Below are positions 9,674 through 63,825 of a stretch of DNA of 64,000 bases, piece by piece; position 1 is the first letter of the stretch; each line of letters begins with the position of its first letter. This stretch comes from an uncultured Gemmatimonadota bacterium (GTDB lineage: Bacteria > ARS69), in NCBI GenBank assembly GCA_964571855.1, contig CAZNDO010000001.1, positions 863,629 through 927,628 of the forward strand. The letters are read 5' to 3'. The notes beneath the pieces were generated by a model. It did no database searches. It was not told the DNA's origin and saw only the letters and a program-made list of their open reading frames with translations. The position numbers were made by a program, and so were the translations under genes.

Positions 9674-9725
9674 GGACCCGCGGGCGCACGCCGCACGGCG
9701 GCCCGACTGACGAGGAGGGAAGACG

Positions 9726-11462
9726 ATGGCCGAGGAGAAAGTCGGACCGACCGCCCTGGGCAAGCTGATCCTGTTCGTGTTCGTGGCGGCCGCGCTGGCC
9801 GGCTCCGCGTACTACTTCCGCGACACGCTCTTCCCGGCCGGCGAGGACGGCCAGCGGCAGGTGAACCTGGACGCCTTCAAGGACCAGGCGGGGAAGGTGG
9901 AGGCGCCGGACACGAAGGGCATCACCACCGTCAACGAGTACACGTACATCCCGGCGGACAAGCTCCCGCCGGTGAAGGGCGTCTCGAACTACAAGTGGGA
10001 CGAGGCGGAGAAGGTGGTGCAGTTCCCGATCAACGTGTGGATCGGCTGGCTCCCCATCGTGGCGGCGAACCACGGCTTCGCCCCGAACGAGGAGTCGATC
10101 TTCTTCAGGAAGTACGGCTTCAAGGTCAACCTGAAGCTGATCGACGACCCGGTCACCGCGCGGGACGCCTTCGCCGCCGGCGAGAGCCACATCCTGTGGG
10201 GCACGCTGGACATGATCGCGCTGTTCGCGCCGGACCTGATGAAGGATTCGCGCACGGCGCCCCGCGTGTACCAGCAGATCGACTGGTCCAACGGCGGCGA
10301 CGGCATCGTCGTGCGCGGCACGGTGAGCACGGTGCGGGACCTCAAGGGCAAGACCGTGGTCTACGCGCAGAACAGCCCGTCGCAGTACTTCATCAACAAC
10401 CTGCTGATCGCGGGCGGCATCCAGCCCTCCGAGGTGAACCACAAGTACACCGCCACCGCGTTCGAGGCGGCGGCGGCGTTCGTGGCCGACAAGCGGATCG
10501 ACGCGTGCGTCTCCTGGGCGCCGGACATCTACAACATCCCGGAGAAGGTGGCGGGGACGCGCATCCTCACCACCACGTCGGAGGCGAACAAGCTGATCGC
10601 GGACGTGTGGGCGGCGCGCGCGGACTTCGCGAAGGACCACCCGGACATCATCAAGGGCCTGGTGGCGGGGATCTTCGAGGGGATGGACCAGCTCGGCGAC
10701 GACGGGTTCAAGGCGCAGGCCTTCCAGTGGATGGCCGAGGGCTACGGCATGCCCGTGGAGGAGGTGCAGGGGATGGCGCTGGACGCGCACTCCACGAACT
10801 TCGCCGAGAACAAGGACTTCTTCCTGAACGCGAACAGCCCCACGAACTTCGAGCGCACCTGGAAGAACATCACCTTCGTGTACCGGGAGCTGGGGCTCAT
10901 CGCCACGCCGGCCCGCTTCGACGAGGTGCTGGACTTCTCCGTGATCCAGGCCCTGGACGCCGAGGGGCTGTTCAAGCACCAGAAGGACACGTACGCGTCC
11001 ACGTTCGCGCCGATGTCGTACTCGAAGGTGTCTGCGGAGGCGCCGATCGTCACGCAGACGATCCGCATCAACTTCTACCCCAACTCGTCGAACCTGCGCG
11101 AGCCGCAGCACGACGACCTGGGCAACCCGATGCCGGGCACCCTGTACGATCCCACGGTGGACGCCACGCTGGACAAGGTGGGGCGCCTGGCCGGGCAGTA
11201 CGAGCGCGCCGTGATCGCGGTGCTCGGGCACACGGACTCGTCCATGAAGGGGAAGGGCGTGCCGTACGACGAGGTGCAGAAGCTCTCCGCGGAGCGCGCG
11301 AACGCCGTCATGCAGGAGCTGGTGAAGCAGTTCAAGTTCGACCCCAACAAGTTCGTCGTGGAGGGGAAGGCGTGGGACGAGCCGGCCGATCCGGAGGATC
11401 CCCTGAACCACGCGATGAACCGCCGGGTCGAGATCGCGGTGTACCCGCCCGAGGCCAAGTAG
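9726..11462 (+). CDS. ABC substrate-binding protein (NMT1/SsuA-like) fused to a C-terminal OmpA-like peptidoglycan-binding domain
   Basis: N-terminal TM anchor; WIGWLP, DWSNGGDGIVVR, DLKGK (SBP); GHTD, LSAERANAV, NRRVEI (OmpA C-domain). Confidence 0.85.
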   Translation: MAEEKVGPTALGKLILFVFVAAALAGSAYYFRDTLFPAGEDGQRQVNLDAFKDQAGKVEAPDTKGITTVNEYTYIPADKLPPVKGVSNYKWDEAEKVVQFPINVWIGWLPIVAANHGFAPNEESIFFRKYGFKVNLKLIDDPVTARDAFAAGESHILWGTLDMIALFAPDLMKDSRTAPRVYQQIDWSNGGDGIVVRGTVSTVRDLKGKTVVYAQNSPSQYFINNLLIAGGIQPSEVNHKYTATAFEAAAAFVADKRIDACVSWAPDIYNIPEKVAGTRILTTTSEANKLIADVWAARADFAKDHPDIIKGLVAGIFEGMDQLGDDGFKAQAFQWMAEGYGMPVEEVQGMALDAHSTNFAENKDFFLNANSPTNFERTWKNITFVYRELGLIATPARFDEVLDFSVIQALDAEGLFKHQKDTYASTFAPMSYSKVSAEAPIVTQTIRINFYPNSSNLREPQHDDLGNPMPGTLYDPTVDATLDKVGRLAGQYERAVIAVLGHTDSSMKGKGVPYDEVQKLSAERANAVMQELVKQFKFDPNKFVVEGKAWDEPADPEDPLNHAMNRRVEIAVYPPEAK

Positions 11463-20725: not shown

Positions 20726-23700
20726 CTACTGCACGCGGATGACCTTCCGGATCCGCTCCCCCTCCGAGGTGGAGAGGCGGGCGAAGTAGACGCCGGTGGC
20801 CACGCGACGCCCGGCGTCGTCGCGCCCGTCCCAGCGGGACGTGTGGGACCCGGCGCCCACCGTGTCGTCCACGAGCGAGCGCACGAGGCGCCCCGCCGCG
20901 TCGAAGACGGACAGGCTCACGCGGTCCTCGCGCGGCACGCTGAACCGGAAGTCCGAGCCCTCGCGGAACGGGTTCGGCGACGTGGCCAGGTCCAGCGCGG
21001 CCGGGCCCGCGACGACCGCGGCGTCCGTGGCGGACGGCGACCCGATGATGATCTCGTAGCTGCCCGCGTTGTCGTTCTGGTTGAAGACGACGAGACCGTA
21101 CCAGTCGGCCGCGGGCGAAAAGTACTCGAACGCCTCGCTGCCGCCGGCGCCGTTCACGTCGGCCTGGTCCACCGCGCTCGTGGGCGCGGCGTAGTAGGTG
21201 GCGCCGTTCGACTTGAAGAGCGCCATGCCGAGATCCGGGCTGCCGGACAGCGTGTTGAGCTGCACGTGCACGTTCGTGCCCGCCGGGAGGAACACGTCGT
21301 ACACCTCCACGACGTCGCCGGCCGGCCAGCTCTGCACCGTGCTCACGGGACCCGCCCCGAGCCAGATCAGGGACTCGGTGCCGGCCTCCATCTCCACGTC
21401 CAGCGCGCCGGATCCCGACGTGCGCCACACGCGCGGGTACACGGTCTCGGCCGGGTTGTGGTTGTAGTCGCCCACGACGAAGTTCACCACGCCGGTGCCG
21501 GACTGGTCGCTGGCCTTGAGCGTGGAGATCGTGTAACCGTCGTCGCCGTACAGCGAGATGGACGCGCCCTGCCCGGCGGACGGCCGGACGCCGAACACGT
21601 GCCAGTACGACGTGTTCGCCGTGCCCGTGCCCCACTGCACCTCGTCCGTGTTCGTCAAGGCCACGTCGTTCGCGAGCGTGATCTTCCGGCCCAGCCAGTT
21701 CGCGTAGGAGCCGCTGGACTCGTCGTTCACGATCTGGACGATGCCGTGCCAGTCGGACTCCGTGGCCGTGTAGCTGAACCACTCGCCCTCGGCGGCGGTG
21801 CGGAAGTTCGCCGCGCCGGCGAACGCCGCGCGCTGCTTGTAGTAGTCGCCGTCGCCGGATCGGAACACGTACAGGCCCTGGTCGATGCCGCCGCTGTAGC
21901 TGCGCAGCATGTACGGGACGCCGTCCTGCAGGTACGCGTCCCACACCTTCGCCACGTGTCCGGCATCCCACGCGGCCGAGGGCAGGATGCCCGAGATGAT
22001 GTCGGCGTCGTGCTCCCATTCCGTGCGGTGCGTGCCGGCGCCGCTCTCCCGGATGACGCGCAGGTAGTCCGGCACGCCGCTCGCGTGGTTGTAGTCCACC
22101 GCGATGAAGTCCGCGTTGTTCGGCGGACCGGCGGCGTTGTAGTCGTCGGAGATCTCGAGCGGGGTGACGTACGTGGCGTCGTTGAACAGCCGCACGGTGG
22201 TGTTCGTGCCGGCGGCCGGACGGTTGCCCACCACGGACCAGTACGCCGCGTTCGGGTCGTAGTCGAACAGCCGGAGATCCAGGCCGGAGAGGAACGGCGT
22301 CTCCTCGGCCAGCGTGGCCGGGGTCGGGCCGATCTGGATCGTGAAGTTCCCGTCGGCCGGGTTGTTCGCGAAGATCACCAGGCCGTACACGTCGTCCGCG
22401 GGGACGGTGTACGTCCAGGACTCGGTGCCGGCGTCGCCGGCCGCGTCCCGGGTCCACTGGGCGCTGGAACGCCCGGCCCAGTACTCGCCGCCGAAGGAGC
22501 GGAAGAGCGACATGCCGAAGTCCGTGGAGCCGGAGGTCACGTCCAGCACGAACGTGACGGTCTCCCCGGCGAAGAGCGGCACGTCCCACACGCGGACCAC
22601 GGACTCCGCGGTCCAGCTGCCCGCGCGGTCCACGCCGTCGGGGTACAGAGTGCCGCCGCCGCTCTCGTACCCGAGGCGGTAGTCGTCCGAGGCGCCGGAG
22701 TAGCGCACGATCTCCACGTGCTCGTTGCCGAGCGGCGAGTGGTTGTAGTCGCCCACCACGAAGTCCACGGTCTGCCCCGCGTACGACGAGGACGCCAGCT
22801 CGTAGCGGTGGTTGTTCTCTCCGTACAGGTGCATGTCGTAGTCGGCGGTGGACGGGCTGCGCAGGCCGACCACGCCCCACGCCGTGTCGTTCTGGTGCGC
22901 CACCATGCCGTGGCTCGTGCTGTTCCACAGGAACCAGCCGCCGTCCCACAGCTCGTAGATGTTCGCGAACGAGTTGCCCATGACGCGGCGCTTCACCAGG
23001 TCCGCCTGGCCGTTCGAGTCGTCGTCCACCCAGCCCCAGTGCTCGCGGGTGTACGGGCAGATCGCCGAGAACGTGTTGTTGATCATCACGCAGCCCACGT
23101 CCGTGGGGCACGTGACGAGCTGGCAGTTCCCGTTGTCGATCACGTCCGTGAGGTACGTGCTCTGGCAGGCGCCGCAGTCCATGTCGCCGTTGCAGCCGCC
23201 GCTCTCCACGTACTCGTCGCACGAGCCGAACAGGTGGCCCCACTCGTGGGCGCGCACGTTCGCCGAGTCGTCCGTGTAGATGCGGGTGCGGGCGAACGCG
23301 TACGACGCGAACGCGCGGCCGGTGATGTCCGCCGGCTGGAAGACGGCGAGCACGTTGTCCCAGCCGCCGCCCCAGTTCTGCAGCCAGATCGTGAGGTCGT
23401 CCACGAAGTACGTGTCGCCGTCCCCGTCGCCGAAGCCGAGCGCCGCGACCGCGTCCTCGGTCATCTCCCAGGTGAACCCGTCGGTCGGGATGTTGTACGG
23501 GAGCGTGGCGGTGTACTCCCAGTAGCCGTTCGTGCCCTGGTTGTCGAAGTACACGTTCGCGTTCGCCGGGGCGTTGTCCAGGAAGAAGTCCTTCGCCACG
23601 GAGTTGCGCGCCGCCTTGTCCTCCTTCTCGGCGGTGGACCACGTGCCGCCCGTGTGGTTGACGAAGATGTTGATCACGAGCGTGCGGCCGCGCTTGTAGT

Positions 23701-23977
23701 GCGCCGTGTCGTTGTCGTCGTTGCCGATCATCCGGAGTCCGCCCTGGCGCATGCGCGCGGCCTCCTCCAGGCGCAGCTCCTCCTCGTGCGAGTCGTCGGC
23801 TTCCCAGTCGTGGCCGCGCAGCGGGCCTTCGGCCTGCGCCTCCGCGATGGCCTGCGCCTTCGCGGCGTCCGTGAACGTGCCGTACCGGGGAGCCGCGGGC
23901 TCGGCCGTCGCGGTCCCCGCGACCAGCGCGAGCAGGGCGACGCCGAGGAGGACGGGAGTGGTGATTGCGCTATTCAT
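20726..23977 (-). CDS. Secreted zinc-metalloprotease-like protein with PPC-like beta-sandwich repeats and C-terminal sorting-like domain
   Basis: Signal peptide; RAHEWGHLFGSCDEY zincin motif, Cys-rich segment, repeated DYNH-containing beta domains, and SPNPF...FDAAGRLVRSL...WDGRDDAG tail. Confidence 0.75.
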   Translation of the reverse strand: MNSAITTPVLLGVALLALVAGTATAEPAAPRYGTFTDAAKAQAIAEAQAEGPLRGHDWEADDSHEEELRLEEAARMRQGGLRMIGNDDNDTAHYKRGRTLVINIFVNHTGGTWSTAEKEDKAARNSVAKDFFLDNAPANANVYFDNQGTNGYWEYTATLPYNIPTDGFTWEMTEDAVAALGFGDGDGDTYFVDDLTIWLQNWGGGWDNVLAVFQPADITGRAFASYAFARTRIYTDDSANVRAHEWGHLFGSCDEYVESGGCNGDMDCGACQSTYLTDVIDNGNCQLVTCPTDVGCVMINNTFSAICPYTREHWGWVDDDSNGQADLVKRRVMGNSFANIYELWDGGWFLWNSTSHGMVAHQNDTAWGVVGLRSPSTADYDMHLYGENNHRYELASSSYAGQTVDFVVGDYNHSPLGNEHVEIVRYSGASDDYRLGYESGGGTLYPDGVDRAGSWTAESVVRVWDVPLFAGETVTFVLDVTSGSTDFGMSLFRSFGGEYWAGRSSAQWTRDAAGDAGTESWTYTVPADDVYGLVIFANNPADGNFTIQIGPTPATLAEETPFLSGLDLRLFDYDPNAAYWSVVGNRPAAGTNTTVRLFNDATYVTPLEISDDYNAAGPPNNADFIAVDYNHASGVPDYLRVIRESGAGTHRTEWEHDADIISGILPSAAWDAGHVAKVWDAYLQDGVPYMLRSYSGGIDQGLYVFRSGDGDYYKQRAAFAGAANFRTAAEGEWFSYTATESDWHGIVQIVNDESSGSYANWLGRKITLANDVALTNTDEVQWGTGTANTSYWHVFGVRPSAGQGASISLYGDDGYTISTLKASDQSGTGVVNFVVGDYNHNPAETVYPRVWRTSGSGALDVEMEAGTESLIWLGAGPVSTVQSWPAGDVVEVYDVFLPAGTNVHVQLNTLSGSPDLGMALFKSNGATYYAAPTSAVDQADVNGAGGSEAFEYFSPAADWYGLVVFNQNDNAGSYEIIIGSPSATDAAVVAGPAALDLATSPNPFREGSDFRFSVPREDRVSLSVFDAAGRLVRSLVDDTVGAGSHTSRWDGRDDAGRRVATGVYFARLSTSEGERIRKVIRVQ

Positions 23978-24644
23978 TGCGGGTCTCCTTCCCGTCGGTC
24001 GCGGGGGCGGGCGCCGCGATCGGCGCGCCGTCGCCGGGCGCGGACGCGCCGCCCTCGAGCGAAGCGGACGCCGGCGGCACGGGCGAGATCGGCAGGATCC
24101 CGCCGCGGAGCTTGGCCTCCTCGGCGGACGTGAGGCCGGACGGGCCGACCTCCTGGACGGACGGCAGGTCGGCGCCGACGCCGGCGATCGGGTCGGGCGC
24201 GGGCGCGATCGTCTCGCGCGCGGTCAGCTGCTGCATCTTCATGGCGGCCAGCTCGTCCGGCGTGGCCCGCGGCGTCTCGACCGGCAGGTGCGTCACGAAC
24301 AGCGTGCCCGCCGCGCGGGACGCCTCCACCGCGGCGCGGGCCGCGTCGAGCTTGGCGCGCTCGCCCGCCGTGACGACCGGCAGCGCGCGCGCCGCGTTCG
24401 TCAGCACGCCGCCGCGGTGCTCGTGATCCGCCGGCACCGCCTCGGACACCAGCGGCGTCACGTCGAAGCGCAGGCCATCCGCATCCGGGGCGACCGGAGG
24501 CGCGGGAACGAACAGGCTTTCCACTTCCTGCGGAACGGCCGCGACCGGCGCCGGCTCGTTGATCGGCTCGGTTGCCGCCGCGGCCGCGGGCAGGAGAAGG
24601 GCCGCGATGGCGGCGGCCTTCGCGGTGCGGTGTGGGGTGTGCAT
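23970..24644 (-). CDS. Hypothetical secreted Ala/Pro-rich protein
   Basis: GAGGAGG RBS, then MHTPHRTAKAAAIAALLLPAAAAA signal peptide; its stop overlaps the start of the protease gene. Confidence 0.6.
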   Translation of the reverse strand: MHTPHRTAKAAAIAALLLPAAAAATEPINEPAPVAAVPQEVESLFVPAPPVAPDADGLRFDVTPLVSEAVPADHEHRGGVLTNAARALPVVTAGERAKLDAARAAVEASRAAGTLFVTHLPVETPRATPDELAAMKMQQLTARETIAPAPDPIAGVGADLPSVQEVGPSGLTSAEEAKLRGGILPISPVPPASASLEGGASAPGDGAPIAAPAPATDGKETRNE

Positions 24645-24773: not shown

Positions 24774-26489
24774 TCAGGAATGGAGGAGGGAGAGGGTCTT
24801 CAGGGAGATGCGGCGGTGGAGGGTCGGGTCGGAGGCGATCCGGCGGCGGAGGGACTCCAGGACCTCCTCCGGGCGCGCCCCCGGGGCGTCCGGCACGGAC
24901 GTCGCGCGGCCCACGCCGCGCAGGAGACCGGAGAGGGCGGACGGGGGGATATCGCCGGCGGTTTCCACCTGGACCCGCGGGGTCTCGGCGAGGGCGCGTT
25001 CGAAGTCCTCGAGGCGTTCCGCGCTCGCGATCACGGCGAACGACTCGCGGCCCGCGCCGGAGGAGACCTCCCAGGCGAAGGGGCGGCCCGCCACGAGGCC
25101 GGGGAGGTGGTGCGGCGTGCCGCCCGGGATCGGGTTGCGCAGCTCCGAGGCGTCCATGGGGAAGAGCAGGTAGGCGCGGCCGCGGTCATCCCAGTTGATC
25201 ACGTAGACGTGCGCCGTGCGCGGCGACTCGAAGCGGAGCATCAGGCGATCGCCCACGGTCACGGTGGCGGCGTCGCCGGCGGGGATCGGGGCGAACGGGC
25301 CGTCGGGCGCGGCGCGCAGGAGTTCGGCCTCGAACGACAGCGGCGTCGTGGTGCGCACCGCGACGAACCAGGCCACGGCCGCGATCGCCAGCGCCGCGGC
25401 GGCGGACAGGAGGACCGGGCGTCGTGTCGCGCGCGGGGACGGCACCGCCTGCAGCGGCGGCTCCGCGTGCTCGGCGCGCTCGCGTCGTGGCGCGTGGGCC
25501 GGCGGGGCCGCGGCGCTGCCGACGTCGAGCGTCTCGAGCCAGTGGAGCGCCGACGCGAACCGCTTCGTGGGCTCCGGATCCAGCGCTCGGTCCACGGCGG
25601 CGGCGAAGTGCGGCGGGAGATCGGGACGCTCCTCTATCAGCCGGCGCCGCTCGCCGCGGGTGTGGGCGTCGCGCAGGGCGGAGACGGTGGAGGCATCCGT
25701 CGGGTAGCGGCCGGTCGCCAGCCGGAAAAGCAGCACCGCGAGCGCGTAGCCGTCGGTGCCCGGCGTCGGCGAGCCGCCGGCGAAAAGCTCCGGTGCCATG
25801 AAGCGCGGCGTGCCGGCGAACTCCGCGCGCGCGCCCTCGCCGTCGCGGCCCCGCGGCGCGCCGCATCCGAAGTCCGTGACGACCAGGCGGTCGTTCCGGT
25901 CGACGAGCACGTTCTCCGGCTTCAGGTCGCGGTGCAGCACGTGCGCGCCGTGGATGGCCGAGAGGGCCGCGAGGAGCTGCCGCGCGAAGGAGACGAGGCG
26001 GGCCTCCGGCAGCGGCGCGGCCTCGCGCGCCACGTCCTCCAGGGTCACGCCGTCCACGTACTCGGTCCAGATGCCCACGAAGCCGTCCTGCCGGTCCGCG
26101 CCGTACACGCGGGCCACGTGGTCGTGCCGCACGCGGGCGAGGAGGCGGGCTTCGCGCATCGCCTCGTCGGCGTCGGCCATCCGCGCGGGGATGAGCTTGA
26201 GCGCCACGTCGATGGACAGCTTCGGGTCCCACGCGCGGTGGACCTCGCCGTACGAGCCGGCGCCGATCCGCTCCAGCAGCGTGAGGTGCGCCCACGAGCC
26301 CTTCGGACCCTCGTCGTCCGCGAGCGCGAGCGGCGCGCCGTGATCGGCGATGCGCCGCAGCGCGCGCAGGTTGCGCACGAGCTCGCGATCCTCCGCGTTG
26401 CGCGACGTCCGCTCCAGCTCGTTCCAGTCCGCATCCATCCGATCGGATACCGCGGCGAGGAAGCGCTCGATCTGCTCGTCACGCGTCAT
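24774..26489 (-). CDS. Membrane Ser/Thr protein kinase with C-terminal extracytoplasmic DUF4384-like domain
   Basis: IGAGSYGEV, VALK, HRDLKPENV, TDFG, GTPRFMAPE; one TM (LLSAAAALAIAAVAWFVAV); GDRLMLRF...HVYVINWDDRGRAYLLFP (DUF4384-like). Confidence 0.85.
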   Translation of the reverse strand: MTRDEQIERFLAAVSDRMDADWNELERTSRNAEDRELVRNLRALRRIADHGAPLALADDEGPKGSWAHLTLLERIGAGSYGEVHRAWDPKLSIDVALKLIPARMADADEAMREARLLARVRHDHVARVYGADRQDGFVGIWTEYVDGVTLEDVAREAAPLPEARLVSFARQLLAALSAIHGAHVLHRDLKPENVLVDRNDRLVVTDFGCGAPRGRDGEGARAEFAGTPRFMAPELFAGGSPTPGTDGYALAVLLFRLATGRYPTDASTVSALRDAHTRGERRRLIEERPDLPPHFAAAVDRALDPEPTKRFASALHWLETLDVGSAAAPPAHAPRRERAEHAEPPLQAVPSPRATRRPVLLSAAAALAIAAVAWFVAVRTTTPLSFEAELLRAAPDGPFAPIPAGDAATVTVGDRLMLRFESPRTAHVYVINWDDRGRAYLLFPMDASELRNPIPGGTPHHLPGLVAGRPFAWEVSSGAGRESFAVIASAERLEDFERALAETPRVQVETAGDIPPSALSGLLRGVGRATSVPDAPGARPEEVLESLRRRIASDPTLHRRISLKTLSLLHS

Positions 26490-27084
26490 CGTGCAGATCC
26501 CGCATGGCCTCGGCCAGCCGCCGCACGGCACGGTTCACGGTCATGCGCGCGGCGTCCGGCGAGGGCTTCCCCACGGACTCGGCGATCTCCGCGTACGACA
26601 GACCCAGCTCGAGCCGGGCGATGACCGCCTCCTGCGCCTCCGGGTCGAGCTGCGCCAGCGCCCGCTCGTAGCGATCCACGGCATCGCGGCCGATGGCCTC
26701 CTCCAGCGGCGAAGCCGGCGCGACGTGCATCACGTCGCGGACCAGGTCCTCCTTGCGCTCGCGCACCTGCGCGCGCCGGATCTCGTCGCCCACGCGGTTC
26801 AGCACGGCCCGCCGCAGGTACGCCAGGAAGGAGCCCGCGCCGCGCGGCTCGTACGTGTCCAGCCGGCGCAGCGTGGAGATCACCGCCTCCTGCACGAGGT
26901 CGTCCGTGTCCATGAGATCGCGGGCGTGGTACGGGAGCCGCCGCGACGCCCACTGCCGCAGCGGCGCCAGGTAGCGCTGCAGCAGCAGCTGCAGCGCCGC
27001 GGGATCCCCCTCGCGCGCCCGGCCGACCAGGCTCGCAGTGGTCCCGCCGGCGGGATCGGGTTCCTGCGCATCCGGTGGGGACAC
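26479..27084 (-). CDS. ECF sigma factor (kinase-associated)
   Basis: ARAREGD..AL, DTDDLVQE, FLAYLRRAVLNRVGD, and region 4 GLSYAEIAESVGK...ARM...RA; overlaps the kinase start. Confidence 0.9.
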   Translation of the reverse strand: MSPPDAQEPDPAGGTTASLVGRAREGDPAALQLLLQRYLAPLRQWASRRLPYHARDLMDTDDLVQEAVISTLRRLDTYEPRGAGSFLAYLRRAVLNRVGDEIRRAQVRERKEDLVRDVMHVAPASPLEEAIGRDAVDRYERALAQLDPEAQEAVIARLELGLSYAEIAESVGKPSPDAARMTVNRAVRRLAEAMRDLHDDA

Positions 27085-27241
27085 GTCGCCTCTCCGTGTG
27101 GACCGCGACGATGCGCGCGGCGAGGCGAGTATAGGGCGGCCTGCGGACCATGGGTCCTCCTTCCGGGGGGACGACCGGGAAACGAGCCAGGAAGGGTGAA
27201 CCGAACGGGGGAGGGGACGCGGCCCGCGGTATCATCCCCGG

Positions 27242-30200
27242 ATGGAACGGAGAACCCGCCCCCGGGACGCCGTTCGCGCCCTCGTGGCGGCGCCGGTCGC
27301 CGCGTGGGCGCTCGCGGCGGCATGGGCGCCGGGGACCGCGGCGCCTTCCGCGCCGCCGGCGCCCGCCATTTCCCGCGCGCAGGCCGTGGTGGATTCGCTC
27401 GCGGAGGCGGAGCGCTGGGACGAGGTCGTCGCCGCGGCGCGCGCCGCGCTGCCCGGCGCGACCGATGCGGCGGCCGAGGCCGCGCTGCGGTCGTCGTTGA
27501 TGCTGGCGCACTTCCACTCCGGCGACCTGACGTCGGCGCGCGCGGAGCAGGAGCGCGTGGTGGCGCTCCGCGCGGCAGTGCTGCCCGCGACGGATCCGCA
27601 GCGGGCGGACGACCTGAACGACCTGGCGATCCTGTGCGATCGCACGGGGGACGACGCGGCGGCGCTGGACGCGTGGGAGCGCAGCCTGGCGCTCCTGCGC
27701 GCGCTGCCCGCGGCGGAGTCGGCCGCGCGCGCCGTGCCGCGCCTGTCGGCGGCGGCCGAGGCGGAGCGACGGCTCGGCCGCCACGCGGCATGCGAACGGC
27801 GGCTGCTCGAGGCGATCGCGCTGTCGGAGGCGCACCTCCCGCGCGACCAGCGGCACGCGCGTCTCCTCAACAACCTCGGCGCCCTGCAGTGGGACGAGCG
27901 CCGCTTCGACGAGGCGAGCCGCAACCTGCGCGAGGCGCTCCGGATCACGCGCGAGGATGCGTCGTCGTCGCCGCTGCGCGTGGCGGTCGCGCACCACAAT
28001 CTCGCCAACCTGAAGCGCGAGCAGGGCGAACCGGACGAGGCGGAGGCGCTTCACCGCGAGGCGCTGGCGCTGGCGCGCGCGCATCTCGCGGAGGATCCGC
28101 AGTTCCCGGTCTTCCTGAAGGAGCCGGCGGTGCTGTACGCGGAACAGGGCCGCTTCGACGAGGCGTTCGCGCTGTGGGACGAGGCCCTCGCGGCGCTCGG
28201 CGCGGAGCGCGCCGGCCTGCTCGGCTCGGAGATCCTGTACGAGCGGGCGCGCGCCGAGCTCGCGCGCGGCCGGCCCGATGCGGCGCGCGCCGCGCTGGAG
28301 GAGTGCCTCGCCATCCGGATGGCGAAGCGCACGGCGGACCATCCCATGACGGCGCAGGCGCGCGCGGCGCTCGGGACGGCGGCGATGCGTCTCGGCCGCG
28401 ACCGCGAGGCGCGGAAGCACTTCGAGGGCGCGCTCGCCGTCCTGCGTGCGTCGCCCGCCTACCCGGAGGAGCGGGCCGAGTCGCTCGAGGGCATCGCCCG
28501 CCTGGACTGGCGACGCGGCCGGCGCGAGGACGCCGTGGCCGCGATGCGCCAGGCGCTCGACGTGCTCGAGGGCCTGCGCTGGCATCGCACGGCGAGCGAG
28601 CGCGCACGGGCGGACTGGGCCCGCACCGCGGAGGAGCCCGCGCGCACGATGGTGGCGTGGCTGGCGCGTCTCGGTCGCGTGGCGGAGGCGCTGGAGTTCT
28701 CGGAGCGGATCCGCGGGCGGATCCTCGGCGACCAGATCGCGGCCGCGCACGTGGACTGGCGCCGCGACGTGCCGGCGGACGTGCAGGCGTCGCTGGCCGC
28801 GCGGGAGCGGGAGGCGCTGGCCACGATCGCGACCGCGCGCCGGCGGCTGGAGGCCGAGCTGCGCGACGACGGGGTCGCGCCCGCCGCCGGCACCGCGGAT
28901 GCCCTGGAGGCCGCGGCGCGCGCGTACCGCGACGTCCTCGAGGAGGGCCGCGCGCGCAGCCGCGCCTGGCGCGGCGCGATGGGCGCGCGCTCGCCCGAGG
29001 GCATCGCGGCGGCCGTGGGCGCCGCGCTCGGACCGGGCGAGATCGTGCTGTCGTGGCAGATCGGGGACGAGGCGTCGTTCCTCTTCGAACTCGAGGCCGG
29101 CGCGGCCCCGCGATGCACGGAGCTCGCCGTCCCGTCGGCCGTCGCGAAGGCGTGGGGCGTGGAGGCCGGGGCGCTGACGGGCGCGAAGCTCGCGGCAGCG
29201 CTGGCGGCCGGGCACGGACCGTTGCCCGCCGACGGCTCCGGCCCGCGCCGCGATGGTCTCCGCGGAGTGGGGCGCGCCACCCCGGCCGGCGCGCGCGCGG
29301 GCGAGACCGCCGCGTCGGCCGCCCGCCTCCGCGACCTCGCGCTCCTCGGGGACGCGCTGCTGCCCGAACCCGCGCGCCGCCGCGCGCTCGCCGCCGATCG
29401 GGTGTGGGTGATCCCCGACGGCCCGCTGCACGACGTCCCGGTGGAGGCCCTGGCCTTCGCCGCGAAGGACGGCGGCGCCGCGTACTGGCTCGACCTCGGT
29501 CCCCCCGTCTGCTACGGGGCGTCCCTCGCCACGCTCCTGGATCTCGCGGCGCGCGAGCGTTCGCCCACCCCCGGCTCGTACGTTCTCACGGTGAACGACC
29601 CGGACCGAGGGGTGACGGGCGACCGCCCCCGGCAGGAAGCGCCCGGCACTCTGGCCGAGTGGGCGCAGGCCGGCCGGTTCCACCCCCTTCCGGGCACGCG
29701 CCGCGAAGGCGACGCGCTCGCGCGCGCCTTCGGATCCGGCGGCGTGCGCCGGCTCGTGGGGGCCGACGCGCGCGAGGGGGAGGTGAAGCGGCTCGCGCCG
29801 GGCGCGCGGATCCTCCACCTGGGAACCCACGGTGTCGTGGAGAAGGAGCGAAGCGATCTGCTGGCGGCCCTGGTGCTGGCCGCCGAGCCCGAGGGGTCGG
29901 CCGAGGACGGCTTCCTGCACCTCTTCGAGGTCTACGACCTGCGTCTGGCCGCGGACCTCGTGGTGCTGTCCGCCTGCGAGACCATGCAGGGCGCGCGGGT
30001 GCCGGGCGAGGGCGTGCTGGCGCTCTCGCGCGGCTTCCTCGCCGCGGGGGCGCGGCGGACCGTCGCCAGCCTCTGGCCCGTGCACGACGAGGCCACGTCC
30101 GAGCTCATGGATGCGTTCGTCGCGGAGCTCGCGCGGGGGACGGCGGCCGCGGAGGCGCTGCGGGATGCGAAGCGTTCGCTGCGGCGGAAACCGGACCGCG

Positions 30201-41093: not shown

Positions 41094-41123
41094 CGCGGGG
41101 AGGCCGGAAGGGCGGAAGGCTGT

Positions 41124-41167
41124 CCGGATGCATCCGGGCCGCCCCGGGTGTATCCTGGATCCAGGAT
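41124..41167. promoter_or_regulatory. Two perfect palindromes upstream of the large surface-protein gene (candidate operators)
   Basis: CCGGATGCATCCGG (41124-41137) and ATCCTGGATCCAGGAT (41152-41167). Confidence 0.35.
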
Positions 41168-41192
41168 CCGGCAAGATCATCGGGGGTGTTGC

Positions 41193-44100
41193 ATGCGGGG
41201 CTTGCCGTGCGTTGCTGCGCTTGCGCTCATCGGTTCCTCGTCCGTATCCGCGGTTACCATCCACGTTCCCGCCGATCACACCACCATCGCCGCGGCCCTC
41301 GGTGCCGCCATGCCCGGCGACACGGTGCGCGTCTCGTGCGGTCTCTACGAGGAGACCGGTCTTGTCCTTCCGCGCGACGTGACGCTGCTCGGGGATCCGG
41401 CAGACTCGTCCTGCGTCGTGCTCCGATGTCCGTCGCCGGGCCGGCCCATCCTGCGCCGGGAGGTTGCCTTCGGGACGAACACGATCCGGTGGATCACGTT
41501 CCGTGACGGCAACTGCACCGACTACGGCGGCGGAGGCGCGATCCGCGGTTCCGGCTACAGCACGACGCACATCTCGAACTGCCGGTTCGAGGGGAACACC
41601 GCGAACAGCGGCGGGGGTGCGGTGGCCACGGTGTCCTCCATCCGGGATTGCGTCTTCGTCGGGAATCACGCCCGGACGGGCGGCGCGGCGTCGTCGACCA
41701 CGATGCAGGTCGTGGGTTGCACGTTCCTCCGCAACCGCGCCACGGACTCGGGCGGTGCGTTGCACCTCGTCAGCGGGCTGGTGGCGGACTGCATCCTCGA
41801 GGAGAACGTGGCGGAGAACCACGGTGGCGGCGTTCGTGTCTCCGGCAACGGATACGCGCGCATCGAGGACTGCTTCTTCCGCGCGGACTCCGCGACCTAC
41901 GGGGGAGGGCTGGCGTACAACGGGTACACGGATCCCGCCCGCTGCGTCTTCCGGGACAACCACGCGTCCCTGGATGGCGGCGGCCTGTACCTCCAGTCCG
42001 CCGTCGTGGACGACTGGTGGCATGACGACATCGTGTACCCCGTCGGTTGCGCCTCCAGCCGGTTCCTCGGGAATCGAGCCGAGAGACGGGGAGGGGCCAT
42101 CGCGCAGGGGCTGGGTTTCGGCACGATCCGGGACTGCTCCCTGGTAGGCAACTCGTCGCCCGACGCCGGGGGGTATGCCGCGGCGCGAGGCGGGAGGATC
42201 GAGCGGTGCCTCATCGAGGGTTCTCCCCAGGGAGCCGCTGTGACGGCGCTCGTTCCCGCGGAGTACCCGTGGGTGGAGTGCTCCGACTTCCACGCGAACG
42301 CGGGGGGCGACTGGACGCCCGGCCTGGCGATCTACATCGGCTTCAATGGCAATTTCTCGGCGGATCCGCTGCTGTGCGCCTCCTCCGGGGACTCCCTGGC
42401 CGTGGCCGCCGCCTCCCCGCTCCTGCCGGAGAACAACGAGTGCGGCGTCCTCATCGGGGCGAGCGGCGCTGCGTGCGAGTCCCCCGGGGTCGTGGTGACG
42501 ACCACGCCGCCCGGGCTCACCGTGGATGTGGACGGCGTACCGGTCGTGGCGCCCGCGGTGTTCGATTGGACCGAGGGGTCGTTCCACACGGTCGGCGTGC
42601 CCGACTCCGTGCTGCCGGGCCCCGGCGTGCGCATCCTCTTCCAGTCGTGGTCCGACGGCGGTGGCGCCACGCACGGCGTCCCGGCCCCGCCATCCCCCGC
42701 GACGATTCGTGCGACGCTGGACAAGACCTACCGCTTCACCGCCACGGCGGGCGCCGGCGGCACCGTCACGCCGCCCACGGACTGGCACCCCGCGCAGGAG
42801 CGCCTCCTCGTCCTCGCGATTCCGGATTCGGTCCATCGACCGGCCGGATGGGTCGGCACCGGCCTCGGCTCGTACACCGGCGGCGGCACGGGGATCGCGC
42901 TCGTCCTGGGTGCTCCGATCTCGGAGCACGCGTCGTTCGAGTACGACGGAACGTATCCCGTGACCATGATCGCGGTCGGGGGCGGGACGGTCTCGCCGCC
43001 GAGCGGCGAATTCCACGTCGGCGACGACGTGGAGATCGTCGCCCAGGCCCCTGTCGGCTACATCTTCGACGGCTGGGTGGGAGAGGGCAGCGGCTCGTAC
43101 ACGGGCCCGGACGCCACCGCGGTCATCCGGATCCTCGGTCCGATCACGCAGACCGCCACGTTCCGGAACGTCGGCTTCGTGCCCGTGGTCGTTCAGGCCT
43201 GGGGCGGCGGCACCGTCGAGCCGGCGAGCGGGGACTACCTGCGCGAGGCGCCGCTCGGGATCTATGCCTACCCGTCGCCCGGCTTCGCCTTCCATTACTG
43301 GGGCGGCGACGGACCGGGGTCGTACACCGGCCCCGAGCAGGCCGCGACCATCCGGCCCATGGGGCCAGTGACGCAGACGGCGTACTTCACCACGGGCACG
43401 TTCCCCTTCACGATCACCGCCGGTCCGGGCGGCGTGGTGTCGCCGGACAGCGGGGATCGCGCGGCGGGTGCCGGACTGTCGATCTACGCCACGCCGTTCA
43501 GCGGCTGGCGCTTCCGCGAGTGGCAAGGCACGGGTCCCGGTTCGTACTCGGGCCCGCTGGCGAACGCGTCCGTGACCGTGCACGGGCCCATCACGCAGCA
43601 TGCCGTGTTCGAGCCGGAGGAGACACAGCACGGCTACGAGTTCTCCGTGAGCCGGAGCGCCACCGATCCGTTCGCCACATCAGGTCCGCCCACGGGGGTG
43701 CCGCGAACCCTCTACCTCTGGCTGACCTGCAGCCAGCTCGGACTCTCGGCGCTCGAGCTCGGCGTGCAGAGCACGATTCCGCTCACGGAGTTCGCGCCCG
43801 CGGCGGGCGTGTACAACGTGGGCTCCGGATCGGACCTCCTCCTGGCGGTCGCCGGCTGCCCCACCGGGAACGACGTGGCCCACGTTCTCGGCTCCTGGAC
43901 CGCTCTCGATACGGGAGGCGAGGTGTGCCTCGGACCGTCCGCCGCGAACGGAGTGTTCGCCGCCGTCGATTGCGGGCCACAGCCCTTCGTGTGGCCTGAC
44001 CCTGTCGCGCGAGGGTTCTCCTCCCTCACGCCGTCGCCGTGCGTGACGGGAGCCAACGGGTGCGGCACGCCCGTGTCGCTCGTGCTGAGCCAACTGGAGG

Positions 44101-60172: not shown

Positions 60173-63100
60173 CTACTTCAGCACGACGACCCGCTGCACT
60201 TCGGTAGTGCGCGCCGTGACCAGCCGGGCGAAGTACGTGCCCGACGCCACCCGGCTCCCGTTCGCATCCTCGAGATCCCAGCGGACCTCGTGCCGCCCGG
60301 CCGGCATCACGCGGTCGAGCAGCGTGCGGACCCGGCGGCCCGTGACGTCGAAGACCTCCAGCGTCGCCGCGCCCGCGTGTTCCGCCGGCAGGTCGAAGCG
60401 GAGGGCGGACGCGTTGCGCGCGGGATTCGGGAACGGCCGGGCGAAGGCGAACCGCACAGGCGCGGCCTCGGGCTCCTCCGCCGCCGTCACGGTCGTGACG
60501 TGCTGGAACGTCAGCGTGTAGGACCCCGTCTGGTCCAGGCCGGCGTCCTCCAGCTGGATGGTGTAGGTGCCCGGGGTCGTGATCGCGTAGTTCACGTTGT
60601 CGGCCGATGTGGCGATCACCGCATTGCCGCCGCCCGGCGGGTAGATGCGCACCATCGTGTCCATCGCGCCGGCGGTCACCACCGCGGTGATCTTCGCCGT
60701 GTCGCCCGCCGCGGCGCTGAAGGTCCAGCCGTCGAGATCCGGGAGCGGCGTGATCTGCGCGAGCTTCACGTCGCCGCCGAGGATCGGGCCCCCGTCGGCG
60801 TCCGTGCCCGAGGTGTAGGGCCCGGCGGAGACGTTCATGAGGGATGCGGTGTAGTTCCCCGCGTTGGTCATGAAGAAGTCCTGGACGACGACGGTGTAGG
60901 TGCCGGAGGCGGCGAGCTGGGCGTCGAGCCGGTCGCCGCTGAAGGTGCTGGTCTGCGCGGGTCCGCCGCCCGGGGGGTAGAGGTAGATCTCGGTGTTGAA
61001 GGAGGCGCCACTCGTGGCCAGCGCCGCGAAGACGACGCGCTGTCCGGCAGACCCGGTGAAGGTGAAGGCGTCGAAGTCCCCGGGCTGGTGCATCTGCCCG
61101 GTCTTGATCTCGGCGGAGGCGATGGCGCCGCCGTCCGTGTCCGCGCCGCTGGTGAGCGGCCCCGCGGTGACGTTCAGGAGCGAGAGGTTGTAGGAGCCGG
61201 TGTGGTCGAAGCCGGCGTCCTGGACGAGGACGACCCAGGTTCCGGTGGCGTTGAGCTGGAGGTCGGCGCGGTCCCCGCTGGTGGCCACGATGGCAGCGCC
61301 GCCGCCGGGTGGGTAGAGGTAGATCTGGGTGTCGGCAGAGCCGGCGGGGGTGAGGACGGTGCTGAAGAGGACGCGGTCCCCGTTCGTGGCGGAGAAGGAC
61401 CACGCGTCCATGTCGGTGAGGGATCCGAAGGTGGCGCTCTTCACTTCCGCGGAGGCGATGGAGCCGCCGTTCGTGTCGGAGCCGGTGGTGTAGGGCCCGG
61501 CGGAGACGTTCATGAGGGATGCGGTGTAGTTCCCCGCGTTGGTCATGAAGAAGTCCTGGACGACGACGGTGTAGGTGCCGGAGGCGGCGAGCTGGGCGTC
61601 GAGCCGGTCGCCGCTGAAGGTGCTGGTCTGCGCGGGTCCGCCGCCCGGGGGGTAGAGGTAGATCTCGGTGTTGAAGGAGGCGCCACTCGTGGCCAGCGCC
61701 GCGAAGACGACGCGCTGTCCGGCAGACCCGGTGAAGGTGAAGGCGTCGAAGTCCCCGGGCTGGTGCATCTGCCCGGTCTTGATCTCGGCGGAGGCGATGG
61801 CGCCGCCGTCCGTGTCCGCGCCGCTGGTGAGCGGCCCCGCGGTGACGTTCAGGAGCGAGAGGTTGTAGGAGCCGGTGTGGTCGAAGCCGGCGTCCTGGAC
61901 GAGGACGACCCAGGTTCCGGTGGCGTTGAGCTGGAGGTCGGCGCGGTCCCCGCTGGTGGCCACGATGGCAGCGCCGCCGCCGGGTGGGTAGAGGTAGATC
62001 TGGGTGTCGGCAGAGCCGGCGGGGGTGAGGACGGTGCTGAAGAGGACGCGGTCCCCGTTCGTGGCGGAGAAGGACCACGCGTCCATGTCGGTGAGGGATC
62101 CGAAGGTGGCGCTCTTCACTTCCGCGGAGGCGATGGAGCCGCCGTTCGTGTCGGAGCCGGTGGTGTAGGGCCCGGCGGAGACGTTCATGAGGGATGCGGT
62201 GTAGTTCCCCGCGTTGGTCATGAAGAAGTCCTGGACGACGACGGTGTAGGTGCCGGAGGCGGCGAGCTGGGCGTCGAGCCGGTCGCCGCTGAAGGTGCTG
62301 GTCTGCGCGGGTCCGCCGCCCGGGGGGTAGAGGTAGATCTCGGTGTTGAAGGAGGCGCCACTCGTGGCCAGCGCCGCGAAGACGACGCGCTGTCCGGCAG
62401 ACCCGGTGAAGGTGAAGGCGTCGAAGTCCCCGGGCTGGTGCATCTGCCCGGTCTTGATCTCGGCGGAGGCGATGGCGCCGCCGTCCGTGTCCGCGCCGCT
62501 GGTGAGCGGCCCCGCGGTGACGTTCAGGAGCGAGAGGTTGTAGGAGCCGGTGTGGTCGAAGCCGGCGTCCTGGACGAGGACGACCCAGGTTCCGGTGGCG
62601 TTGAGCTGGAGGTCGGCGCGGTCCCCGCTGGTGGCCACGATGGCAGCGCCGCCGCCGGGTGGGTAGAGGTAGATCTGGGTGTCGGCAGAGCCGGCGGGGG
62701 TGAGGACGGTGCTGAAGAGGACGCGGTCCCCGTTCGTGGCGGAGAAGGACCACGCGTCCATGTCGGTGAGGGATCCGAAGGTGGCGCTCTTCACTTCCGC
62801 GGAGGCGATGGAGCCGCCGTTCGTGTCGGAGCCGGTGGTGTAGGGCCCGGCGGAGACGTTCATGAGGGATGCGGTGTAGTTCCCCGCGTTGGTCATGAAG
62901 AAGTCCTGGACGACGACGGTGTAGGTGCCGGAGGCGGCGAGCTGGGCGTCGAGCCGGTCGCCGCTGAAGGTGCTGGTCTGCGCGGGTCCGCCGCCCGGGG
63001 GGTAGAGGTAGATCTCGGTGTTGAAGGAGGCGCCACTCGTGGCCAGCGCCGCGAAGACGACGCGCTGTCCGGCAGATCCGGTGAACGTGAAGGCGTCGAA

Positions 63101-63556
63101 GTCCCCGGGCTGCTGCATCTGCCCGGTCTTGATCTCGGCGGAGGCGATGGCGCCGCCGTCGGTGTCCGATCCGCTCGTCAGCGGCCCCGCGGTGACGTTC
63201 AGGAGCGAGAGGTTGTAGCCGCCGGCGTCGTTCAGTCCGGAGTCCTCGACGAAGATGGTGTAGGTGCCGGTGGAGAGGAGCTGGTAGTCCACCCGGTCGG
63301 CCGTGGTGTTCAGCACCTCCGTGAGCGCCGGGTTGCGGAGCCGGATCCGCGTGTCCACGGCGCCGCTCGTGGTGACGGCGGCGATCAGGACGCGGTCTCC
63401 CGCGGTGCCCGTGAAGGTCCAGGACTCCTGGTACGTGGGGCTCGCGAGTGCTCCGCCAAGCACCTGGCCGGACGTGATCGGTCCCGCGGCGAGCGCGGCA
63501 GCGGGTGCGAGGATGAGGAGCGACAGCAGCGACGCCAGCGAAGCGGATCGGTTCAT
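60173..63556 (-). CDS. Secreted protein made of about nine PPC-like beta-sandwich repeats plus C-terminal sorting-like domain
   Basis: Signal peptide; repeated D.[FW]TF.G.AG.RV...D..I.LY.P.G...L...GTY.V.V.D...G.Y; PFPNP...FDVTGRRVRTL...WDLED tail. Confidence 0.85.
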   Translation of the reverse strand: MNRSASLASLLSLLILAPAAALAAGPITSGQVLGGALASPTYQESWTFTGTAGDRVLIAAVTTSGAVDTRIRLRNPALTEVLNTTADRVDYQLLSTGTYTIFVEDSGLNDAGGYNLSLLNVTAGPLTSGSDTDGGAIASAEIKTGQMQQPGDFDAFTFTGSAGQRVVFAALATSGASFNTEIYLYPPGGGPAQTSTFSGDRLDAQLAASGTYTVVVQDFFMTNAGNYTASLMNVSAGPYTTGSDTNGGSIASAEVKSATFGSLTDMDAWSFSATNGDRVLFSTVLTPAGSADTQIYLYPPGGGAAIVATSGDRADLQLNATGTWVVLVQDAGFDHTGSYNLSLLNVTAGPLTSGADTDGGAIASAEIKTGQMHQPGDFDAFTFTGSAGQRVVFAALATSGASFNTEIYLYPPGGGPAQTSTFSGDRLDAQLAASGTYTVVVQDFFMTNAGNYTASLMNVSAGPYTTGSDTNGGSIASAEVKSATFGSLTDMDAWSFSATNGDRVLFSTVLTPAGSADTQIYLYPPGGGAAIVATSGDRADLQLNATGTWVVLVQDAGFDHTGSYNLSLLNVTAGPLTSGADTDGGAIASAEIKTGQMHQPGDFDAFTFTGSAGQRVVFAALATSGASFNTEIYLYPPGGGPAQTSTFSGDRLDAQLAASGTYTVVVQDFFMTNAGNYTASLMNVSAGPYTTGSDTNGGSIASAEVKSATFGSLTDMDAWSFSATNGDRVLFSTVLTPAGSADTQIYLYPPGGGAAIVATSGDRADLQLNATGTWVVLVQDAGFDHTGSYNLSLLNVTAGPLTSGADTDGGAIASAEIKTGQMHQPGDFDAFTFTGSAGQRVVFAALATSGASFNTEIYLYPPGGGPAQTSTFSGDRLDAQLAASGTYTVVVQDFFMTNAGNYTASLMNVSAGPYTSGTDADGGPILGGDVKLAQITPLPDLDGWTFSAAAGDTAKITAVVTAGAMDTMVRIYPPGGGNAVIATSADNVNYAITTPGTYTIQLEDAGLDQTGSYTLTFQHVTTVTAAEEPEAAPVRFAFARPFPNPARNASALRFDLPAEHAGAATLEVFDVTGRRVRTLLDRVMPAGRHEVRWDLEDANGSRVASGTYFARLVTARTTEVQRVVVLK
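60812..63076. repeat. Intragenic tandem repeat, 675-bp unit, about 3.4 copies, apparently identical
   Basis: Shadow ORFs recur at 60993, 61668, 62343 and 63018 (spacing 675). Translations are identical; the first DNA mismatches found are at 60811 and 63077. Confidence 0.9.
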
Positions 63557-63825
63557 GGGGGCGAACTCCCTCGGAAGTCATGGCGGTGGCACCATCGATC
63601 GACGGCGCCAAAGGCAAGCCGCATGCCAGTGGCGGGCAGCCGGCCACCCATCGCGCAACACCTTGGGAAACAAGGGTTTGGCCCCGGAGCCGGGTCCCTC
63701 GAGCACCCGCCCTCTCGCCGGGGTGTCACGAACCAATACACACCGATCTGTCCCGCCCCGGGACATGTCCGTCGGGCCCGCGCATGGATTACGCTGGAGG
63801 CACCGCTCCGCCTCGAGGCCCCCGC

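Follow-up and report, generated by a model that had tools for sequence, protein, structure and literature searches.

A 64,000-nucleotide stretch of DNA from an uncultured Gemmatimonadota bacterium (hereafter the window) encodes a sigma factor of the extracytoplasmic function (ECF) type, a membrane Ser/Thr kinase whose gene overlaps that of the sigma factor and, divergently, a predicted secreted TPR-CHAT cysteine protease. The kinase ectodomain and the protease share a short peptide that is conserved in both protein families and that changes together in partners encoded at the same locus. As far as the sequences speak, this conserved, co-changing peptide points to an undescribed protease-to-kinase-to-sigma signalling module.

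A peptide shared by a receptor kinase and a CHAT protease

The first-pass annotation of this DNA had reported an identical octapeptide, LRGVGRAT, in the tail of the kinase and in a loop of the protease. Translation confirmed both copies and their codons (Table 1): positions 24870-24953 of the minus strand read ...SGLLRGVGRATSVPD... and positions 29228-29311 of the plus strand read ...RDGLRGVGRATPAG.... The kinase uses CTG CGC GGC GTG GGC CGC GCG ACG and the protease CTC CGC GGA GTG GGG CGC GCC ACC, such that 19/24 nt are identical, five of the eight codons differ synonymously and the flanks are unrelated. Copying or conversion of DNA is ruled out by these codon differences and flanks, and together with the family-wide conservation described below they uphold the earlier proposal that selection acts on the peptide.

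Reading frames were picked by codon-position GC content (70-78% GC in the window). The domain calls made previously (a membrane kinase with DUF4384, a TPR-CHAT protein and an overlapping ECF sigma factor) hold by Pfam. The open frame of the kinase spans 24774-26531 on the minus strand, its real start is the ATG at 26489, and the 571-residue product exactly matches database protein P0001. This ATG sits in the last codons of the ECF gene, and the overlap between the ECF stop and the kinase ATG, read in the sequence, is 11 nt. The TPR-CHAT gene diverges from the ECF-kinase operon across a gap of 157 nt, and the predicted catalytic dyad of its product consists of His863 (29828-29830) and Cys912 (29975-29977), with the codon positions checked. 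Both copies of the peptide are probably extracytoplasmic, as had been supposed: the kinase tail lies past the transmembrane helix, and the protease has a signal-peptide-like N terminus, its orthologues likewise beginning with a hydrophobic segment.

By itself, the octapeptide is no more than suggestive, because the search was post hoc and the expectation across every protein pair of the 72% GC window is 0.14 shared 8-mers; for the kinase-CHAT pair, it is 0.0028 under independent, identically distributed residue composition and 0.0027 by shuffling. In an unbiased scan for the best shared 9-mer of each locus, matches of 6/9 were ordinary background, leaving the scan underpowered, and the motif was the sole best match only in the window and in L006. 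Such figures would suit a coincidence born of common residues (L, R, G, V, A and T), low-complexity loops and a genome of 72-78% GC. Among the real frames of the window, RGVG occurs only in the kinase and in the CHAT protein, and once more in a stop-to-stop frame upstream of the open reading frame (ORF) at 50780, where it probably precedes the start codon. A second RGVT site in the window CHAT protein (residue 789) is not conserved among orthologues.

The motif is conserved in both protein families

Motif positions are counted from the Arg, with Gly+1 next to it and +2 onward thereafter. In an alignment of 33 kinase homologues, with identities as low as 35%, R524 never varies and G525 hardly does, within a surrounding segment that is variable. 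A profile search with the ectodomain, cut at E<=1e-30, collected 656 cluster representatives, the best 146 of which show the Arg in 146/146, Gly+1 in 141/146 and Gly+3 in 138/146, giving the consensus xLRG[IV]GG[LV]. These proteins define a family of DUF4384-tail receptor kinases, composed of Pkinase, a transmembrane helix, DUF4384, an L-R-G-phi-G loop and a C-terminal helix-strand. The window protein fits this family as a variant with R-A at +4/+5 in place of G-L. The C-terminal segment after the loop is also conserved in the homologue alignment.

On the protease side, R-G-V-G is the sole conserved island of a hypervariable loop in 23 CHAT orthologues, 21 of which keep it; R674 is nearly invariant and G675 invariant. 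In the same alignment, H863 and G864 are invariant and C912 is at least 90% conserved, and the catalytic His and Cys are retained in every CHAT partner examined, distant ones included. The motif was found in three non-homologous loops of the CHAT partners, according to clade. The placement in a TPR-CHAT loop given by the first-pass annotation thus stands for the window clade, in which the loop belongs to the N-terminal half of the CHAT module, but most relatives carry the motif elsewhere: in an insertion right after the catalytic His-Gly (L006, L007, L008, L013, L016 and L019) or in an insertion ahead of the last strand, near the C terminus (L018). In the largest clade, that of the L008 CHAT domain, 86 of 118 relatives with a recognizable His motif have R[GAS][VI]GGL at a median of 14 residues past His-Gly, and the consensus of the post-His loop in L008-type proteins, GTRGVGGL, is nearly that of the kinases. 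Because the motif occupies non-homologous positions and always resembles the tail of the partner, it qualifies as a portable short linear motif and not as a structural element. Databases hold thousands of related CHAT proteins, and most generic TPR-CHAT matches lack the motif.

On these alignments, the motif is a family-wide R-G-phi-G-(G/R)-(L/V/A) and not a locus-specific octapeptide. What survives of the earlier octapeptide is its shared core; the usual correspondence between partners is 5-6/8, and the 8/8 identity in the window is the extreme of that range, owed partly to luck, which the core is not.

The motif agrees between partners encoded at the same locus

A search for related loci with close sequences yielded only 2 genome loci and 3 metagenome loci, so partner pairs were assembled contig by contig from loci L001-L019. 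A TPR-CHAT gene lies less than 10 kb from the ECF/DUF4384-kinase pair in the window and in L001-L003, L006-L008, L013-L016, L018 and L019; the contig of L017 stops inside a TPR gene. Judging by the names of the metagenome-assembled genomes (MAGs), the ECF/DUF4384-kinase/CHAT module is widespread in Gemmatimonadota and other soil phyla. The 11-nt ECF/kinase overlap recurs in L007, L008, L009, L013 and L019, and sigma region 2.2 reads (D/E)-T-x-D, with the Thr present in 16/16 loci.

The first-pass annotation had suggested testing whether an xRGxG peptide co-varies between the two partners at homologous loci, and such co-variation was borne out by permutation in 16 kinase/CHAT pairs (examples in Table 2). 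We counted 63 identities at +1 to +6, compared with 44.9+-3.4 for shuffled partners (0/200000 permutations), and obtained 1/200000 with 12 clade representatives and 522/200000 for position +2 alone; these global figures are inflated by the shared ancestry of the partners, and the exact within-clade permutations, which are the conservative ones, gave 22/5040 for the post-His/C-terminal clade. L015 is a second module of the Gemmatimonadota MAG (GCA_964471155.1) that also contains L001, such that one genome contains an RGVGR pair and an RGVTG pair. We had read L014 as a Gly-to-Ser change in both partners, an interpretation that was withdrawn after alignment of the homologous CHAT column; this ambiguous locus was entered in the permutation test as counting against the hypothesis.

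Table 2 Motif segments of kinase and CHAT partners.
Locus	Kinase	CHAT
Window	LLRGVGRAT	GLRGVGRAT
L002	VLRGVGRAS	AVRGVGAAR
L003	LLRGVGRAT	EVRGVGVAR
L006	RLRGAGAIA	GLRGAGEIA
L007	RLRGAGGLA	GTRGVGGVA
L008	VLRGLGGVD	RRRGLGGIA
L013	RLRGIGGIA	RRRGIGGVY
L015	LSRGVTGVT	RARGVTGAV
L016	LLRGVGGLT	STRGVGALS
L018	PIRGVGALQ	TPRGVGALG
L019	HLRGIGGMS	GARGIGAAE

The motif also performed prospectively. A distant CHAT protein, P0200, was chosen solely by the motif in its post-His loop, and the next two genes proved to encode an ECF sigma factor and a DUF4384 kinase, with an 11-nt overlap between them and a matching kinase motif, HLRGIGGMS. The similarity between kinase and protease therefore goes beyond chance, because both families keep the core at aligned positions in hundreds of sequences and because agreement is specific to partners; with the neighbourhood of an unrelated CHAT protein foretold by the motif as well, we consider coincidence extremely improbable.

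A third factor could in principle read R-G-phi-G in both proteins, which would then be independent clients of another periplasmic protease, of a sorting or modification enzyme or of an envelope receptor. Two motif-bearing kinase loci in which no CHAT gene lies within 10 kb would suit such a factor, as would the richness of these loci in secreted proteins with FlgD_ig or type IX secretion system (T9SS)-type tails. However, no third gene is conserved across the loci and no further motif protein occurs there in a coding-like frame, and the agreement between partners, including the L001 and L015 variants within one genome, would be hard to explain. We regard a third factor as improbable.

Predicted structures place both copies in exposed loops

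AlphaFold2 monomers built with orthologue alignments reached a mean predicted local distance difference test score (pLDDT) of 79.7 (protease) and 80.5 (kinase). Both window copies of the motif fall in low-pLDDT loops between confident domains (below 50 at protease residues 676-688 and kinase residues 510-536), and burial of the peptide, which would have spoken against the original proposal, is not what the models predict: the two loops are disordered and exposed. The kinase loop leads from the DUF4384 sandwich to a C-terminal helix (540-560) and strand (561-570), both modelled with confidence. Confidence is low for the protease's active-site loops too, a feature seen in resting CHAT enzymes. 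Foldseek matched the window protease to DdvA (E=8e-16), separase (E=5e-14) and Csx29 (E=8e-12) (8eey, 7y9x, 8eex), with global template-modelling scores that are low owing to domain orientation.

A model for protease-gated kinase signalling

We propose that the motif is a recognition site of the CHAT protease, with the kinase copy as a target in trans and the protease copy as an auto-processing site or pseudosubstrate, and that the outcome is relief of kinase inhibition and phosphorylation of the ECF sigma factor; we put the chance that this model is right at about even. Reading the motif as a recognition site is favoured because it combines an invariant Arg and a very small residue with a clan CD fold and the precedent of separase. 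The module would comprise an ECF sigma factor, a membrane Ser/Thr kinase translationally coupled to it and a TPR-CHAT cysteine protease that is secreted, and the R-G-phi-G-(G/R)-(L/V/A) peptide would link each protease to the kinase of its own module. The peptide would bind in the CHAT active site (His863/Cys912) with Arg at P1 and Gly at P1', and the copy in the protease itself, on a loop that may be able to reach the active site, would act as an auto-processing site or a pseudosubstrate that maintains or sets the state of the enzyme. A signal sensed by the TPR array would free or activate the protease, which would engage the peptide of the kinase ectodomain and either cut or clamp it: a cut at the Arg-Gly bond would part the C-terminal helix-strand from the remaining ectodomain, and clamping would rearrange the helix-strand. 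Inhibition of the cytoplasmic kinase by the ectodomain would be lifted, and the kinase would phosphorylate the ECF sigma factor, probably on the invariant Thr of the D-T-x-D in sigma 2.2, turning transcription on. The direction of signalling, binding of the peptide in the active site, cleavage after the Arg and phosphorylation of the sigma factor are steps that we infer.

Two parts of this model draw on other kinases. Relief of inhibition by the ectodomain is plausible because PknS kinases lacking the periplasmic domain become phosphorylated, which we extend here by analogy. That the kinase phosphorylates the sigma factor directly would fit the 11-nt overlap and the invariant Thr of sigma 2.2, again by analogy; the recurrence of this overlap in many loci, together with that Thr, likewise lends backing to the earlier suggestion that the kinase acts on the ECF factor. 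A broader proposal is advanced more tentatively, its probability falling somewhat short of even: a widespread caspase-like protease of the periplasm would use R-G-phi-G-G-L as its code for cleavage and pseudosubstrates and would clip DUF4384 ectodomains to switch on receptor kinases.

The strongest competitor is a docking or competition motif that is never cleaved, in which a single pocket, such as the protease's TPR groove or the kinase's DUF4384 sandwich, would bind both loops. Such a system could work by tail swapping, with loop and tail in competition, or the kinase tail could be a securin-like inhibitor of the protease, and no bond would be cut in either case. Conservation spans six or seven residues, mostly on the prime side (R-G-phi-G-G-L), as in short linear docking motifs; the agreement between partners at +2 to +5 suits a binding interface, TPR arrays are peptide binders, and pseudosubstrate inhibition is documented in the same fold (securin and the AIL3 loop of separase). 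By contrast, the invariant Arg precedes a very small residue (Gly or, in rare cases, Ser or Ala), which is the P1-P1' pattern of clan CD, the motif mostly lies about 14 residues from the catalytic His, near the active site and not the TPR array, and the catalytic dyad is kept in all partners examined. Nor does the AlphaFold2 monomer predict docking of the kinase tail in cis on DUF4384. On balance, we judge uncleaved docking to be rather unlikely, and a third factor or chance to be much less likely than docking.

Several observations weigh against the recognition-site model. The conservation on the prime side (+2 to +5) is equally typical of a docking motif, and in the AlphaFold2 monomers neither motif loop is docked. 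The protease Csx29, a structural relative, is described as cutting after Leu (IDLD motifs) and not after Arg (PMC11506125). The motif is absent, by the pattern used, from the CHAT orthologues P0138 and P0144 and from 32 of the 118 proteins of the post-His clade, and no CHAT gene lies within 10 kb of the motif-bearing kinases at L009-L011 (one locus) and L012. Partners differ at variable positions in L007 (A/V) and in P0015/P0135 (V/T), and the CHAT protein of L014 has no Arg at the homologous column, which reads SVSGAHAAT, with LERSAQVAR 13 residues downstream. Finally, beyond the inflation of the global permutation figures by ancestry, the exact within-clade permutation for the window's own clade reached only 8/120.

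If it is correct, the model would add a protease-gated receptor kinase to the known controls of ECF sigma factors, a bacterial counterpart of protease-activated receptors wired straight to a sigma factor, and would assign a role to DUF4384. Motif variants such as RGVGR and RGVTG, both present in one genome, would keep paralogous modules insulated, and such orthogonal protease-peptide pairs would be potentially useful in synthetic signalling. For a large family, the module offers a testable answer to how the ectodomains of ECF-linked Ser/Thr kinases may sense signals and to what bacterial CHAT proteases outside CRISPR systems may cut, with a six-residue peptide, a catalytic dyad, a candidate phospho-acceptor in the sigma factor and natural specificity variants.

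Comparison with known systems

The first-pass annotation was aware of no description of this circuit. Full-text literature searches on DUF4384, on CHAT combined with ECF and kinase terms, and on periplasmic TPR-CHAT proteins turned up no account of the triad or of the shared motif, but the claim needs tempering by the precedents of Csx29-Csx30-RpoE, DdvA-DdvS and ECF43 with its Ser/Thr kinase. The window module shares parts with each known system and is a member of none.

In the type III-E Craspase, the TPR-CHAT protease Csx29 cuts Csx30, which binds the ECF sigma factor RpoE, and one group of Csx30 proteins ends in DUF4384, a domain often fused to proteases (10.1101/2022.08.17.504292). As in the window, a TPR-CHAT protein is encoded with an ECF sigma factor and a linking protein; in Craspase the protease targets a flexible linker beside a C-terminal domain, as our model supposes here. 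The window protease is predicted to be secreted, whereas Csx29 is cytoplasmic, and the linking protein is a receptor Ser/Thr kinase instead of an anti-sigma-like binder; the motif centres on Arg-Gly, in contrast to the Leu/IDLD site described for Csx29, and no motif shared by protease and substrate has been described for Craspase. The partner in the window, Pkinase-transmembrane-DUF4384, is not of the Csx30 type, DUF4384 being the sole domain shared with one Csx30 group. No Cas7-11, CRISPR array or Csx30/Csx31 was found among the window neighbours, and 13 related loci contain no cas genes.

DdvA is an anti-sigma factor whose periplasmic TPR-CHAT region has a His-Cys dyad and controls an ECF sigma factor, DdvS, with cleavage of its own linker proposed (PMC11506125). 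It is the best structural match of the window protease, and cleavage of a flexible linker in trans has been proposed for it. Here, however, the TPR-CHAT protein is separate and its membrane partner is a kinase, whereas DdvA combines a zinc anti-sigma domain, a transmembrane helix and TPR-CHAT in one polypeptide; the DdvA active site also lacks three helices, and its cleavage is likewise only proposed. Just ~40 signal-peptide-like residues precede the TPR repeats of the window protein, which has no anti-sigma domain by Pfam. Among the neighbours scanned by domain, no anti-sigma domain was found, although no search was aimed at anti-sigma factors and the ORF at 23970-24644 has no family match.

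ECF sigma factors under Ser/Thr kinases include ECF43 EcfP/PknT and EcfK/PknS, as well as groups ECF59-62, 217, 267 and 283 (PMC8999054, PMC7826278, PMC13147305), and it is established for ECF43 that the kinase phosphorylates its sigma factor (PMC8999054). The periplasmic domain of PknS seems to keep the kinase switched off, as our model supposes for the window kinase, and the PknS/EcfK study left activation through the periplasmic region to future work. The window sigma factor consists of sigma2 and sigma4 only (Pfam r2 and r4_2); its product is called sigma70-ECF by NCBIfam, the nearest model being Sig-70_plancto1 with a score under the cut-off. Like the ECF43-type factors, it adjoins the gene of a single-pass Hanks-type kinase, here with an overlap, and has a Ser/Thr in the 'DAED' position of sigma 2.2, which reads DTDD. 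ECF43 lacks the acidic residues of that position (STTA), in contrast to the D-T-x-D of the window group; because these residues are kept, the window factor is not an ECF43 proper and resembles other kinase-linked groups that retain them. The ECF-associated kinases described so far have other ectodomains (TPRs in PknS), and none is reported with a partner protease or with a DUF4384-plus-RGxG tail.

Separase has an invariant Arg at P1, cleaves insert loops of its own, fills the substrate site with its AIL3 loop and is inhibited by securin as a pseudosubstrate (PMC10317155). Homology was compared at the level of the fold; the likeness covers the fold class and, as proposed here, an Arg at P1, copies of the recognition motif in disordered insert loops of the enzyme itself and a pseudosubstrate partner. 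Separase differs in being eukaryotic and intracellular, with an ExxR site instead of R-G-phi-G and no kinase or sigma output. A type III-B SAVED-CHAT/PCaspase cascade also includes a sigma factor, PCc-sigma, and a Ser/Thr kinase, PCk (10.1101/2023.06.23.546230). It too co-encodes a CHAT protease with a sigma-70-type factor and a Ser/Thr kinase and follows the logic of a proteolytic cascade, but it is cytoplasmic, is triggered by cyclic oligoadenylate through the SAVED domain and includes a second caspase, with no ectodomain or shared motif reported. In the Steens preprint, we found no stated cleavage site for the CHAT protease.

Gene neighbourhood and further observations

Table 1 Features of the module in the window.
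Feature	Start	End	Strand	Details
ECF sigma factor gene	26479	27084	-	201 aa from GTG; Pfam Sigma70_r2, Sigma70_r4_2, Sigma70_ECF
Membrane Hanks-type Ser/Thr kinase gene	24774	26489	-	571 aa; Pfam Pkinase E=6e-41
Cytoplasmic kinase catalytic domain	25554	26279	-	Residues 71-312; PF00069 and confident AlphaFold2 fold
Single transmembrane helix	25353	25412	-	Residues 360-379, LLSAAAALAIAAVAWFVAVR; AlphaFold2 hydrophobic helix H360-379 and sequence
Extracytoplasmic DUF4384 beta-sandwich	25017	25262	-	Residues 410-491; PF14326 E=4.6e-12; strands pLDDT 85-97
Disordered, exposed motif-bearing loop of the kinase ectodomain	24882	24962	-	Residues 510-536; pLDDT <50; flanks variable in alignment
Kinase motif copy LRGVGRAT	24900	24923	-	Residues 523-530; ~30 aa past DUF4384
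Conserved C-terminal helix and beta strand of the kinase	24780	24872	-	Residues 540-570; pLDDT ~91-92; H540-560, E561-570
TPR-CHAT gene (clan CD, caspase/separase-like)	27242	30247	+	1001 aa; Pfam CHAT E=1e-58, TPR_12; predicted secreted
Signal-peptide-like N terminus of TPR-CHAT	27242	27337	+	MERRTRPRDAVRALVAAPVAAWALAAAWAPGT; by sequence reading
TPR/helical-repeat array	27374	28984	+	Pfam TPR families; unbroken helical repeats H45-581 (AlphaFold2)
Disordered motif-bearing loop, N-terminal half of the CHAT module	29222	29317	+	Residues 661-692; block pLDDT 55/44/36
Protease motif copy LRGVGRAT	29258	29281	+	Residues 673-680; 20 aa ahead of the Pfam CHAT start
CHAT protease domain	29339	30238	+	Pfam PF12770, residues 700-999 of 1001, E=1.1e-58
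FG-GAP x6/UnbV_ASPIC/FlgD_ig secreted protein	30346	32637	+	Pfam; directly downstream of the CHAT gene

A gene for an FG-GAP/UnbV_ASPIC protein follows the CHAT gene not only in the window but also in L003 (2719-4926), L015 (5374-7692) and L002 (1-683, partial), and its product may be a clade-specific fourth member or accessory of the module, or else a regulon target; the window protein, which also carries FlgD_ig, contains no RGxG motif. Directly downstream of the kinase, the ORF at 23970-24644 (minus strand) encodes a small, Ala/Pro-rich, secreted-looking protein with a signal-like MHTPHRTAKAAAIAALLLPAAAAA, kept in L001 (73%) and L005 and without a family match; past it lies a gene for a 1083-residue protein with a T9SS-type sorting tail (20726-23977). 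Other window neighbours encode an FGGY kinase, T9SS-tail proteins, the FG-GAP/ASPIC protein and a Na/H exchanger.

At other loci, the CHAT gene of L002 (807-3920, P0136) seems to be frameshifted just ahead of the catalytic Cys, with the rest in an ORF at 989-1447, which would reflect either a sequencing error or a pseudogene. In the Vicinamibacterales-like L008 (6701-9037) and L013 (7406-9177), the CHAT gene is separated from the ECF-kinase pair by small ORFs (80-122 aa) and a radical SAM enzyme, which resembles the layout of a peptide-modification cassette. In L016, a gene for a Peptidase_C11 (clostripain-like, an Arg-specific member of clan CD; 1134-2783) lies upstream of the CHAT gene, and downstream of the kinase there is another ECF sigma factor (9190-9741).

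Large secreted proteins with shared C-terminal PNPF(R), FlgD_ig or Por_Secre_tail segments abound across the window (for example, at 1650-4250, 3409-8163, 20726-24223, 41094-44654, 46505-50188 and 60173-63577), those at 41094-44654 and 46505-50188 being clear paralogues, and this richness in T9SS-type cargo accounts for most of the other shared 8-mers of the window. The gene at 60173..63577 (minus strand) encodes a secreted protein of 1135 residues with eight tandem domains of ~112 residues and a PNPF/FlgD_ig-type tail. Within it, 60759-63299 consists of four tandem 675-nt units of 93-100% identity, each made of two ~338-nt subrepeats of ~72% identity; long repeats this similar are suggestive of recent expansion or of concerted evolution, and they carry a risk of assembly collapse.

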